Shown: positions 46,144 to 49,955 of the stretch, in pieces | How the letters are laid out: the number at the start of each line of letters is the position of its first letter | How positions within the stretch are numbered: the first letter of the stretch is position 1 | DNA from: a virus | Direction: 5' to 3' (one strand) | DNA: 64,000 bases | IMG/VR virus record: IMGVR_UViG_3300028833_002847 | Notes under the pieces: model-generated | Seen by the model: the letters and a program-made list of their open reading frames with translations, nothing else | Told to the model about the DNA's origin: nothing | Databases searched by the model: none | Made by a program: the position numbers and the translations under genes

Positions 46144-48423
46144 TTGGATAGTGGTACAACATTTATTAGTAAAGCTGGATTACAACGTTTTTATGCTAGA
46201 ATTTATGAAGTCTTTGCTAATAAAAATCATACCCATGTTGGTACTAATATAGATGCAGCTACTACAACTGTTCGTGGTACTGTTCAACCAGATGGGACTA
46301 CAATTGATGTTACTGCTGCTGGTGTAATTAGTGCTAAGACCGCTACAGGAAGTGCTAAAGGTATCGTACAACCAGATGGTACTTCTATTAATATTAATAA
46401 TGGAACAATTAGTGTTCCTGATGCTAGTACAAGTCAAAAAGGACTTTTATCTTCTAGTGATAAAACTAAGTTAAATGGAGTTGCAACAGGAGCTACTAAA
46501 ACAGAAGTTACTAATGCTACTACTTTAACTATTACTGATAGTGCGGGAAGTACATCTACTTTTTCTGGTATGACCGCGGCTGAAAGAAGTAAATTATCTG
46601 GGATTGCGGACAATGCTAATAATTATAGTTTACCCACAGCTTCATCAGATACTCTTGGTGGAATTAAAGTTGGTAATCATCTTTCAATTATAAATGGTGT
46701 TTTAACAATTGCTGATACTGTAGCATTAGTTTCTGCTTTATCTAATTATGTTACAACAACTACTTTTAATAATTTTAAAACAGATGATTATGATGTTTTT
46801 AAATTAGCTCGTGAAACTAATTTTGGTGAAGATATTGGAGATGGACTTGCTGTTTCTCCTTCAAAGAAATTAGTAATTGATACTAACTTTCTTGGAGATT
46901 ATATTTCAGAGCAGTTTACTCCAGGCGTTGTAGTTCCTACTTATAATAGTAAAACAGGACAATATACAGGAATTCCAGAATGGTTAGCTAGTACACTTGA
47001 GGAAGATGAACATAAAGATGAAATTTATACAACTCGTATTCCTAAATGAGATACTAGCCATGATGTAGTCTGTGTTAAAACTGATGATAATGCTGGTCTT
47101 AGTGTAACACCTTCAACAGAAACTTATGCGGGAGCTGATGATTATAAAAACTTACCAGCTTTTAAAACTTGGGAGGTTAATGGTGGTTATAGTGGAACTG
47201 GCATTCCATATGTAACAGCATTTAAAGGTCGTGACTCTTGGTTTAGTAGAACTGGTGAAAATGGAGATGTCTGGATTATGACCCGTGTACTTTGGTATAA
47301 GTGGGAAGAAGATGAAGACTATCAATATATTTCTATTTCTGCTAGTCCACAAACAGGATTTATTCCTGAACCTGGTGCTGTATTAGCAAATGGACAGCTA
47401 AGACCATTTATTCTTAGAGCTAAATATCCTATTGGAACTTACAATGGAAAGATTGCTTCTGTCTCTGGTGTTATGACTAGAGTAAGAGATATTTCTTATA
47501 ATACTTTAATTACTTTAACAGCAGCTAAAGGTGCGGCTTATGGTAGTTTATCAGTCGATGACTTATGGTATTTTAAGACAATGATTCTTATTAAATATGC
47601 AACGAAATCTTCACAAACAGCCTTCCCCGGATGTACAAATCATTATTTAACTTATTATCCAGTTATCGCCGAGACAAATGTAACTCACGTTACTTTATCT
47701 GCTGCTAATGCTGCAAATATTCCTGTAGGAAGTACAATTTGTATAGGTACTTCTGACAGAGGTGGACAGATTATTAATAATGCAAAAGTAATTTCTAAAG
47801 AAACTACAGCAGATGGCGTTGCATTAAATCTTAATACTACAACACCTTTTAGCACATTAACGACACATAGAGTAGATACTTTACCTTGGTACTGCGGTTC
47901 TTGCGATGAGGTACTTGGTAATGATGGTTCACCTACTGGTGATATGAATGGTAAAGAGCCATTTATTCTTCAAGGTATTGAATATATGGTTGGTGCTTGG
48001 GAAATTTCAACTGATATTATGTTTAATTGAATTGATGGTGAAGGACATATATTAGTTGGCAAAGACCGTTCTACTAAAGTTTCTGGTAATTCAACAGGAT
48101 TTGTTGATACTGGACTTAAAGTAGGACAAGGTTCAAATGATGGATGGGTATATCCAACAGATTTTACTCATCTAGATGGATTAATTATTACGACCAATAC
48201 GGGTGCAAGTCAAACTACTGGTGTAGGAGATGGTAATTACACTTATAAGACTGGTACAACTCAAACAGGACTACGCGAGTTTCTGGCCTTCGGTGGCCTC
48301 CACTATGGTGGTGCTGCGGGTGCTTCGTGCTTCGCCTCGGATAGCGTGCTTTCGGTCACGGGGTGGGACATTGGCGGGCGCCTTTCTGGAACAGATACTT
48401 ATGGTACTTGGTCTAATAGTTAA
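46144..48423 (+). CDS. Tail fibre / receptor-binding protein, about 759 aa, containing TGA codons. Its C-terminus carries the DGR variable repeat
   Basis: Frame is continuous from 46144 to TAA at 48421 once TGA is read as sense. Repeated ...KGxVQPDGTxI... and DKTKLNG motifs. GC-rich C-terminal segment. Confidence 0.55.
48280..48382 (+). repeat. DGR variable repeat (VR), 103 bp, with an IMH-like GGCGGGCGCC 3' end
   Basis: Differs from the downstream TR at 20 positions, each of which is adenine in TR. Confidence 0.7.
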
Positions 48424-48571
48424 TTTTTAGTAATATAGGTTTAGACATTTTTAAAAGAAGGGATTTGTAACGAAAATTGTTCTGAAGCCCTTGCTTATGT
48501 TTCTAAACTGTATTTACTTTTCCTTTGGCGGGCGCTCCTTGGCGGGCGCTCGTGAGGTATAAAAAGTGCGG

Positions 48572-48673
48572 TTTCAGGCCTTCGGTAACCTCAACAATGG
48601 TGGTAATGCAGGTGCTTCATGCTTCAACTCGAATAACGAGCTTTCGAACACGAGGTGGAACAATGGCGGGCGC
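48572..48673 (+). repeat. DGR template repeat (TR)
   Basis: Near-identical to VR except at TR-adenine positions (AAC-rich). Non-coding location. Two upstream GGCGGGCGCTC copies at 48527-48555. Confidence 0.7.
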
Positions 48674-48875
48674 TCATATTGATATTCTAAGTTTTTTATA
48701 TATTACTTTTAGTAATATTAAATATACTTGCGTTACATCTAGACTACATACTTTGCAAAAAGTCGTGATAGTCCATATGCCTGGCTCTTTTGAGTGAAAT
48801 GTTATATTCAGAAAATTGGGTTAGTAGCCTATATGGTAGAAAATTCAATTTAGAATATCAATAAGAAAGTGAAAA

Positions 48876-49955
48876 ATGAAGTCATATTTAAAACATTTTA
48901 CAATTACTCGTGATTTTATTGAGTATGCTTATGAGAAATGACTTAAAGCAGAAGCGGGTCATAAAAATGAATGACGAGTTCAAAAAGAATATGATTCTAA
49001 AGATGCTCTTATTGACGAGATATATACGGAGATTAAAAATCGAACAGTTACTCTTAGACCTATTCATAGATATAATCATTTAGAAGAAACTAATGGTAAA
49101 ATTAGAGTACTTGGGGTTGAGTCTGTAAAACAACAAATACTTGATTATATTGTAGTTTTAGCTTTAGATGAATTTTTAAATAAAAGAATAGGTTATTGAC
49201 AAATTTCTGGAATTAAAAATAGAGGAGCTGTTAGATATTTAAGGAAAGTTCAAGGATGAACTAGAAATTGTAAATATCATGTTCATGTAGATATTAAACA
49301 ATTTTATCCTTCTACTTCTAAATCTCTAGTCTACAAGGTTTTATTAAAATATATTAAAAATGAAGAAATCCTATATATAGCAAAATTATTGCTTAACTCT
49401 TATAATTTTGGTTTAGAGTTAGGAAGTTATTTTAGTTTATGTATGGCAAATTTAGTTGTAAGTTTTTGTTATCATGAGCTAGAAGAAAAAAAGAATTTAA
49501 AACATCAAGTTTGGTATATGGATGATGGTTATTTATTTGGAGATGATCCAGAAGAATTAACTGCCCTTGTTAATGAATTAAGCACTTATCTTTTCCAAAA
49601 TTTTCATCTAGAACTTAAAGCTTGAAAAATATGTTTAAATAAACGTACATATCGTAGTCGTACTGTTAAACATTCAATTTTTAAAGGAGAGCCAGTAGAT
49701 TTAGCTGGTTATCGAATTACTCCCACTTGTATCACTTTAAGAAAAAATCTTTTTAGAAGATTGTTACGTTCTTATCGAAGATTTTTAAAAAAAGGTGGAG
49801 AACGTCTTGCAAGAAGATGTTGCAGTTATTGGGGATATTTAAAATATACTGATAGTTTAGGAGTACGACGACGTTATAATTTAGATAGAATAATGAAACA
49901 ATGTAGCGCATTAATATCAGCCTTAGATAAAAGGAGGGCCAATGAGAAACAATAA
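48876..49955 (+). CDS. DGR reverse transcriptase, about 359 aa, with 5 in-frame TGA codons
   Basis: RT motifs HVHVDIKQFYPS, LGLELGSYFSLCMANL (motif-4-like) and YMDDGYLFGD (YxDD). Confidence 0.65.

Follow-up and report, generated by a model that had tools for sequence, protein, structure and literature searches.

The window analysed here, a 64-kb stretch of viral DNA (IMG/VR record IMGVR_UViG_3300028833_002847), very probably carries a functional diversity-generating retroelement (DGR) of a compact type, in which target gene, template repeat (TR) and reverse transcriptase (RT) follow one another without an avd gene, within the genome of a large phage, at least 148 kb in length, in which TGA stands for tryptophan. 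A preliminary description of the locus had called the element complete, and we find all of its parts present and in the right order: a target open reading frame (ORF) with a variable repeat (VR) at its 3′ end, the TR, and an RT resembling Brt, the enzyme of the BPP-1 DGR. The two repeats differ from each other only at template adenines, the VR has turned over recently, and an RNA duplex that brackets the TR is supported by covariation. The parts of the cassette are listed below in the numbering of the window, which is used throughout; IMH denotes the site for the initiation of mutagenic homing and IMH* its counterpart in the TR.

46144-48423, plus strand: DGR target gene, 759 aa under code 4 with two in-frame TGA codons, tail-fibre or receptor-binding-like
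46921-48408, plus strand: C-terminal domain of the target (about residues 260-755), predicted DGR variable-protein or C-type-lectin fold, like that of the formylglycine-generating enzyme (FGE-like)
48279-48381, plus strand: VR, 103 nt, 65% G+C, mismatched to the TR only at 19 TR adenines
48373-48382, plus strand: IMH-like 3′ end of the VR, GGCGGGCGCC
48571-48673, plus strand: TR, 103 nt; its 26 adenines fall in 16 codons, of which 10 are AAY
48665-48674, plus strand: IMH*-like 3′ end of the TR, GGCGGGCGCT
48876-49955, plus strand: DGR RT, 359 aa, with five in-frame TGA codons (Trp), YMDD and motif 4 LGSYFSL

Variable and template repeats

Matched by ungapped comparison at an offset of 292, the VR and TR agree at 84 of 103 nt, and all 19 mismatches fall on adenines of the TR, affecting 19 of its 26 A's (hypergeometric P 2.7e-15); eleven are A-to-G, five A-to-T and three A-to-C changes. 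This is the adenine-restricted pattern that characterises DGRs. The preliminary description had the length of the pair right and its start coordinates one base off, and it placed every difference on a template adenine but counted 20 of them; the twentieth is the flanking base, C at 48382 behind the VR and T at 48674 behind the TR. That base comes directly after the shared GGCGGGCGC, as the single 3′ difference of the IMH type already reported, and no similarity continues further on. The repeats thus end in an identical, GC-rich stretch followed by a discriminating mismatch, the arrangement of an IMH and IMH* pair, and by analogy with BPP-1 the 3′ end of the VR may serve as the IMH. Four exact copies of GGCGGGCGC occur in the window, all of them in the DGR locus (at 48373, 48527, 48541 and 48665), compared with 0.31 expected by chance, and none of 100 shuffles gave four. 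The repeats have 52-65% G+C versus 31% for the genome. No second VR was found when both strands of the whole window were searched with the 77 non-adenine positions of the TR.

Ten AAY codons together with CAG, GAG, ACG and AGG give the TR 14 randomisable codons, and randomisation of its adenines makes 1.1e14 protein variants possible while a stop codon cannot be reached. The invariant tryptophan within the VR and TR is encoded by TGG, which fits the rule that constant residues avoid adenine.

The element belongs to a family, defined by its RT, of at least 98 loci in IMG/VR, 80 of which were kept. Most members are siphophage genomes of ~32 kb, and some homologues of the target come from Eggerthellaceae and Gordonibacter assemblies. 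About 60 loci follow one compact plan, with a VR of ~100 nt at the end of the target, an interval of 106-201 nt, a TR of ~100 nt, a second interval of 157-202 nt and the RT, and in about 60 related loci the mismatches lie almost exclusively at TR adenines.

The reverse transcriptase

The RT ORF is open only when TGA is read as a sense codon. Its product matches the Pfam family RVT_1 (E 3.7e-10) and the PHROG reverse-transcriptase family (2.3e-40), and its sole sequence match in the PDB is Brt of the BPP-1 DGR (8ub7, 1.8e-15). A tblastn search against phage genomes returned the RT genes of Faecalibacterium phage FP_Epona, Butyrivibrio phages, crAss-like phages, ANMV-1 and BPP-1, all at less than 32% identity; these relatives are annotated reverse transcriptases and include brt of BPP-1, a proven DGR RT. 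By these matches the RT next to the repeats belongs with those of DGRs; its YMDD is the catalytic YxDD, and W[YH]xDD is conserved among the aligned RTs of its own clade. An earlier claim of YMDDG and a DGR-type motif 4 stands for the YMDD and only in part for motif 4, in which the glutamine of GxxxSQ has given way to leucine in nearly all of 32 aligned RTs of the clade. The preliminary description had also named two points on which it might fail, differences outside template adenines and a missing catalytic motif, and on both it held up.

In a more distant clade of IMG/VR loci (L065-L089, RT identity 29%), the RT ORF measures 417-428 aa and is about 65 residues longer at its C-terminus; there the RT end and the downstream gene may have been fused or rearranged.

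Recent turnover of the variable repeat

Activity was assessed on four close relatives of the DGR locus that come from other assemblies (L001, L008, L009 and L010). Between L008, a contig of 148 kb, and the window there are 12 differences in about 22,000 aligned bases; nine lie in the VR, all at TR adenines, no further one occurs across the 3.8-kb DGR, and the 22 kb outside the VR hold three. Outside the VR L009 has diverged by 1.6% and L001 by 3.7%, and within it they differ at 16 and 25 of the 103 positions, respectively. The TR is identical across the four relatives save for GG or AC at 48654-48655, the only place at which the TRs of L001 and L009 depart from that of the window, and there the two bases of every VR are those of the TR in the same genome. 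Likewise, in L010 a non-adenine position of the TR has changed from C to T, and so has its counterpart in the VR. The VRs follow the substitutions of their own TRs, and information therefore flows from TR to VR.

Fourteen target proteins (two 90% clusters) hold 12 VR alleles. In the 14 VR peptides all 14 adenine-codon positions are variable compared with 2 of 20 others (each in a single sequence), and the mean pairwise difference is 0.81 at adenine codons versus 0.059 elsewhere. The L008 comparison, the range of alleles and the tracking of each TR by its VR point to mutagenic homing that is ongoing, as far as sequences can tell.

Rare VR changes are found at non-adenine template positions, namely C to G (F to L) in P0186/L001 (equivalent to 48333 of the window) and A to V in P0192; they may be ordinary mutations or low-level errors of the RT at bases other than adenine. 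One target protein from JGI/IMG, P0176, encoded on a contig of 148,493 nt, has the same VR peptide as the window, which probably derives from that contig or is identical to it.

The target protein and its fold

The N-terminal 290 residues of the target contain head-fibre-like repeats that match Pfam Phage_head_fibr (PF11133, 2.9e-8); residues 292-757 match PHROG 17147 (function unknown, 7.6e-73) and PHROG 5302 ('tail protein', 1e-17), and the C-terminal 466 residues have at least 484 database homologues. In related siphophages the homologous gene comes after those for tape-measure, Dit, Tal and BppU_N proteins and before holin and lysin, where a receptor-binding protein is usually encoded, so that 'tail fibre', as the gene had been called, is a reasonable reading of its gene order in relatives and of family matches that are weak.

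The fold was modelled with AlphaFold2 on P0053, which is 99% identical to the target of the window, using an alignment of 81 sequences, and the predicted local distance difference test (pLDDT) exceeds 90 over most of residues 260-750. Among solved structures, the best matches of the model are DGR variable proteins of the C-type-lectin fold, followed by FGE-like proteins. The prediction bears out the C-type-lectin fold proposed earlier for the fibre C-terminus, and in the model the VR at the 3′ end of the ORF maps onto it. The Pfam model FGE-sulfatase had no match to the target protein of the window.

The target is flanked by other genes of fibre character. Its N-terminal part shares the motif GLLSxxDKxKL with a 1230-aa protein encoded downstream (51231-54923), which has many copies of GLLSxxDKxKLD, a collagen-like G-X-Y stretch at about residues 96-137, eight in-frame TGA codons, no TGG and no VR; a second fibre is its likely identity. 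The target is immediately preceded by an ORF of 270 aa (45247-46059) with four in-frame TGA codons, no TGG and a cysteine-rich C-terminus, CKLNCKMKCRNRHSICNKC; it matches no family, and its position is kept in L008 and L009.

Recoding of TGA and the suppressor tRNA

Read with code 11, the ORFs of 100 aa or more add up to 58% of the window; with code 4 they add up to 91%. The RT gene does contain the five recoded TGA codons ascribed to it, at codons 22, 33, 108, 128 and 250, and in the alignment of 32 homologous RTs all five stand on conserved or invariant tryptophan columns; TGA therefore encodes tryptophan. The phage also has a matching tRNA gene:

57191-57286, plus strand: phage tRNA with anticodon UCA (opal suppressor), detected by ARAGORN, 96 nt with a long extra arm

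ARAGORN labels this tRNA as a selenocysteine tRNA because of its 96-nt length; TGA nonetheless aligns with tryptophan. With the gain in coding density, TGA at tryptophan positions and the tRNA(UCA), the phage has the features of a recoded phage, and the tRNA is presumed necessary for translation of the RT and the other genes that contain TGA.

TGA is used in blocks. Segment 26844-34644 has 20 TGG and 5 TGA and segment 38605-45175 has 29 TGG and 4 TGA, with all of these TGAs in ORFs of 60-80 aa; the fibre and RT block (45247-55916) has 28 TGA and 16 TGG, 12 of the latter in the target gene. Such block-wise use is the pattern of recoded phages that infect hosts with the standard code, and recoding has been proposed to delay the late genes (bioRxiv 10.1101/2021.08.26.457843). 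We also observe that the left arm (1235-11603) mostly uses TGA for tryptophan, and that the segments 26844-34644 and 38605-45175 are readable in the standard code, their ORFs longer than 80 aa being free of in-frame TGA.

The tRNA(UCA), in which the discriminator base appears by eye to be G, is one of 25 tRNA genes in 56098-63810, all on the plus strand and interspersed with HNH endonuclease genes (56356-56877 and 57765-58415). Upstream of the fibre and DGR module, the genes at 37724-38527, 38605-39423 and 41089-42540, as annotated on L008, encode a sortase (PF04203), a metallophosphatase and a TROVE (Ro60-like) protein; next to so large a tRNA array, the TROVE protein may have a link to RNA quality control. 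Judging by related contigs, which measure 148-150 kb, the genome is probably about 150 kb long. A megablast search with the 12 kb around the locus found no match in 50,697 phage records, and the phage thus has no close sequenced relative in that collection.

RNA elements around the template repeat

Three RNA elements flank the TR.

48460-48472, plus strand: GGGAUU and a 7-nt arm, UGUAACG (48466-48472), 5′ strand of the TR-bracketing duplex
48525-48553, plus strand: two tandem IMH*-like copies of GGCGGGCGCTC (48527-48537 and 48541-48551), forming a GC-rich hairpin of 10+4 bp
48674-48875, plus strand: spacer RNA between TR and RT, with P1 (48674-48693 with 48847-48866), CGUUACA (48731-48737) as 3′ strand of the duplex, and hairpins P2, P3 and P6/P7 (48796-48848)

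UGUAACG at 48466-48472 pairs over 7 bp with CGUUACA at 48731-48737, immediately 5′ of a conserved NCUA(C/G) motif of the spacer. The duplex was first picked by eye among long spurious ones in an RNAduplex-style search of the flanks and was tested afterwards. The 62 loci have ten different arms among them; for every one the spacer 3′ of the TR contains a perfect complement, and the position beside the conserved motifs is fixed; the 3′ arm was located through its complementarity, its distance to the conserved motif being nevertheless fixed. On 12 distinct sequences all seven pairs have changed on both sides and 98.8% of cells are paired, none of 500 shuffles equalled this, and slid registers collapse. 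A pairing of sequence upstream of the TR with the downstream spacer is also what constitutes the 'cPRT Stop' of Bordetella, an avd:Sp duplex that ends cDNA synthesis and is required for cis-priming and that has putative counterparts in 207 DGRs, all of them with Avd (bioRxiv 10.1101/2023.10.23.563531). By analogy with BPP-1, the bracketing duplex may act as such a stop.

Spacer motifs (GUGAAAU, GGGYYAGUAG and CCAGAGAG) are conserved across clades of very different base composition. RNAalifold supports a closing helix P1 right after the TR, a small hairpin P3 and a 6-bp helix P6 that encloses P7 and shows compensatory changes; in the window P1 is a 20-nt inverted repeat with 90% complementarity. 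A covariance model (R1) was built from 13 GC-rich relatives, and in the clade of 29% RT identity it matches over its full length a short way 5′ of the RT gene (E about 1e-4). Rfam recognised no known RNA family in 48200-49000, and inspection by eye of the TR 3′ end against the spacer gave no consistent template:primer duplex. The conserved GCC(C/U) motif of the spacer could pair with GGGC or the TR 5′ end, in competition with P6, which has the better covariation. Scans for sigma-70 promoters and terminators gave no more sites than shuffled sequence, and we therefore propose no transcript boundaries.

In the window 98 nt separate the 5′ arm of the duplex from the TR that follows it (94-104 nt in its clade), compared with 13-34 nt in relatives, and the approximately 80 extra nucleotides contain the GC-rich hairpin. 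The two additional copies of GGCGGGCGCTC noted earlier upstream of the TR are indeed there, and they fold on each other about 20 nt 5′ of it. In L010 a T-to-C change in the second copy turns a G.U pair of the hairpin into G-C; L002 (RT 78% identical) has one copy at the same place, within what is predicted from its sequence to be a different stem, and the GC-rich relatives have none. Since the duplex arm now sits far upstream of the TR, we favour a role of the hairpin as a local roadblock that would end cDNA synthesis near the TR boundary. Alternatively, one copy could pair with the TR's own 3′ end, the core GGGCGCUC being self-complementary.

Evidence against and alternative explanations

Several observations weigh against a working DGR with the RNA architecture proposed above. 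Avd is essential in the BPP-1 DGR, and it appears to be absent here. Neither the cassette ORFs nor seven of the 17 basic ORFs of 85-175 aa in the window have a Pfam match to Avd (nine others, mostly clearly spurious, were not scanned and one is an HNH protein), a search that covered the window and not the rest of the genome. The 147 nt from the target stop codon (48423) to the TR leave no room for a gene the size of avd, which agrees with the earlier statement that no such gene lies between VR and TR. A basic ORF across the TR (48525-48824), considered as an avd candidate, is spurious, as it is not conserved even in a close relative with an RT about 94% identical. Motif 4 of the RT, LGSYFSL, departs from the signature [LIV]GxxxSQ; the VR lacks a hairpin or cruciform of the BPP-1 type 3′ of its IMH, the DNA of 48365-48445 folding no better than shuffled sequence (z 0.61). 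As for the RNA, the bracketing duplex crosses helix P1, which implies a pseudoknot or alternative states; at 98 nt from the TR the arm has a less obvious role as a stop in the window phage; and the only match of the covariance model in the window (48796-48848) is weak and partial (E 1.2, 128 kb searched). Two of these points have precedents. Avd is absent from 26% of curated DGRs and is hence no strict requirement, and Architecture A, without an accessory gene, makes up 29% of curated DGRs, for which Avd-independent homing has been inferred (Wu et al. 2018, PMC5758913). A deviant motif 4, GxxxSP, is known from bona fide DGR RTs of crAss-like phages (PMC12386605), and the signature is thus typical but not obligatory.

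Could the RT instead derive from another retroelement, such as a group II intron, a retron or a defence RT, with the repeat pair an unrelated partial duplication of a gene? The RT does yield weak generic RT-domain matches to the corresponding models, but the group II score of 47.7 bits compares with a curated cut-off of 300 and the retron score of 28.4 with one of 235, and the matches to defence RTs are weak as well. Brt as the only PDB match, the adenine-only mismatches (at the P value given above) and a target-TR-RT synteny kept in about 60 loci have already refuted this explanation, whose probability we regard as negligible. The element could also be a fossil, its VR diversified in the past and the machinery now dead for want of Avd or because stop codons interrupt the RT. 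The missing avd gene, the fragmentation of the RT ORF under the standard code and the non-canonical motif 4 would all suit a fossil. The nine VR differences at adenines compared with three outside the VR over 22 kb in L008 largely refute it, and the tracking of TR substitutions by the VR, the intactness of the RT under code 4 with each TGA at a conserved tryptophan column, and the existence of a whole avd-less family with clean adenine-only mismatches speak against it too; we consider a dead element very improbable.

A further question is whether the host, rather than the phage, supplies the recoding. Code-4 bacteria exist, and if the host itself read TGA as tryptophan the TGAs of the RT gene would be devoid of regulatory meaning and homing would be independent of the phage tRNA. 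The phage, however, has its own tRNA(UCA), its use of TGA is block-wise, as in recoded phages of standard-code hosts, and its sortase suggests a walled Gram-positive host; a host with this code is improbable, and we expect with good confidence that the host uses the standard code. The preliminary description had made homing dependent on the suppressor tRNA, which is plausible and holds only for a host with the standard code, as the block-wise use of TGA suggests.

The acidic ORF behind the RT

A further gene accompanies the cassette.

49942-50295, plus strand: acidic ORF, 117 aa, isoelectric point (pI) 4.2, overlapping the RT stop codon

Its family comprises proteins of 109-148 aa with a pI of about 4.2 (for example at 11056-11427 in L003 and 11067-11417 in L006), which conserve WLRxNI, ADEVH and F(D/E)ELW. 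Searches of Pfam, PHROG, NCBIfam and PDB profiles gave no match to the protein, for which only two close homologues were found, and its AlphaFold2 model reaches a pLDDT of 40. From its position we suspect a similarity to XkdW. It could be a cofactor of the DGR or a protein associated with the fibre.

That it is an accessory factor of this DGR lineage and a functional stand-in for Avd would suit its tight association with the RT, whose gene end it overlaps or abuts in nearly all loci of the clade with RTs of 37-96% identity, and which it also adjoins in MT836575.1, where the RT is only 22% identical. An acidic accessory protein, CH1 (pI 4.7), is known from another avd-less lineage; it measures 160-169 aa and occurs only in lineage 3a of Bacteroides (Wu et al. 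2018, PMC5758913). Several features are at odds with such a function. The pI of the protein is 4.2, whereas Avd is basic and binds nucleic acids; in L032-L046 it is fused to a carbohydrate-binding module, CBM_5_12, giving 238 aa; and its position, before XkdX and then holin and lysin in relatives, or before XkdX and then further fibre genes in the window, suits a virion or fibre-associated protein. In the clade of 29% RT identity, moreover, the putative counterpart that the scan found at this site has only 76 aa. On balance a role in place of Avd appears unlikely.

A model of mutagenic homing and its significance

On the model of BPP-1, homing would begin with a transcript that spans the GGGAUU element, the TR and the ~200-nt spacer. 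This RNA would fold with the 7-bp duplex bracketing the TR and the structured spacer next to the GC-rich 3′ end of the TR. The Brt-like RT would then copy the TR into cDNA, misincorporating opposite adenines, and this cDNA, anchored by the GGCGGGCGC common to both repeats, would take the place of the VR at the fibre gene's 3′ end, with the outcome that 14 codons are randomised on a receptor-binding tip of predicted C-type-lectin fold. Production of the RT, and hence homing, may be confined to the phase of infection in which the phage tRNA(UCA) is available. A bolder combination of these elements, which we put forward with considerable doubt, is that RNA alone provides priming, processivity and termination by means of a pseudoknotted scaffold with a TR-bracketing duplex, and that the large recoded phage has added two layers to it: a GC hairpin made of copies of the TR 3′ end, which resets the cDNA stop to a point near the TR, and a translational gate of five TGA codons in the RT, which limits hypermutation of the fibre to late infection, with the suppressor tRNA then present.

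Phage-fibre DGRs are textbook biology and the element itself is unsurprising; avd-less cassettes, C-type-lectin targets and recoded stop codons in DGR RT genes (PMC12386605) have likewise been described. Less familiar are the direct evidence of recent homing, the covarying duplex without Avd, the clade-specific IMH*-like hairpin and the location of the RT in a TGA-rich block. The locus offers a clean natural example of recent DGR activity, for which data are seldom so direct, and its avd-less family keeps a TR-bracketing duplex like that demonstrated structurally in the Avd-dependent element of Bordetella. At about 1.5 kb, with an RNA and one protein, it is a compact system for the study of Avd-independent mutagenic reverse transcription, and since the phage switches codes and its RT gene lies among TGA-rich genes, the idea that recoding also sets the timing of hypermutation can be put to the test here.

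Comparison with known systems

Like the DGR of BPP-1 (mtd-avd-TR-brt), the element is phage-borne and diversifies, through AAY codons, the C-terminus of a receptor-binding fibre protein predicted to have a C-type-lectin fold. The RT is a homologue of Brt, and identity over the core reaches only about 27%. Both repeats end 3′ in the same GC-rich stretch, after which comes a mismatch, and RNA on the two sides of the TR is linked by a long-range duplex between the upstream sequence and the spacer downstream, as in the avd:Sp 'cPRT Stop'. Unlike BPP-1, it has neither avd nor a hairpin after the IMH, its motif 4 ends in SL and not SQ, and its TR measures 103 nt compared with 134 nt; it has a clade-specific GC hairpin of IMH*-like copies 5′ of the TR, and its RT gene needs read-through of TGA. 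The gene order is that of 'Architecture A1' (target-TR-RT), with no avd, HRDC, MSL or CH1 in the cassette, and the RT could not be mapped onto the named lineages of that study (Wu et al. 2018, PMC5758913). TaqVP of Thermus aquaticus (PDB 5vf4) has 18% sequence identity to the target and, unlike it, is encoded on a bacterial chromosome and is not a phage fibre.

The compact DGR family of ~32-kb siphophages and prophages (L003-L089, from IMG/VR and ENA) is among the closest known systems. Its RTs are 29-45% identical and have the same motifs, its targets have a homologous C-terminal domain and the VR peptide FxxxGNLNNG..AG...W.IG.RLSG, and its parts are spaced alike and include the GGGAUU element, the bracketing duplex, the spacer RNA and the acidic downstream ORF. 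The window differs from it in belonging to a TGA-recoded phage of 31% G+C and at least 148 kb, in a 290-aa N-terminal extension of the fibre with head-fibre-like repeats, and in a P1 helix lengthened to about 17-20 AT-rich pairs. Recoded phages with DGRs have been reported before (PMC12386605); the suppressed codons reported in their RT genes are amber (TAG), they infect Bacteroidota hosts and belong to an unrelated phage order, and their RTs keep GxxxSQ and are in some cases accompanied by Avd. In common with the phage described here, they carry DGRs that act on tail fibres together with suppressor tRNAs, and seven of their RT genes contain suppressed stop codons.

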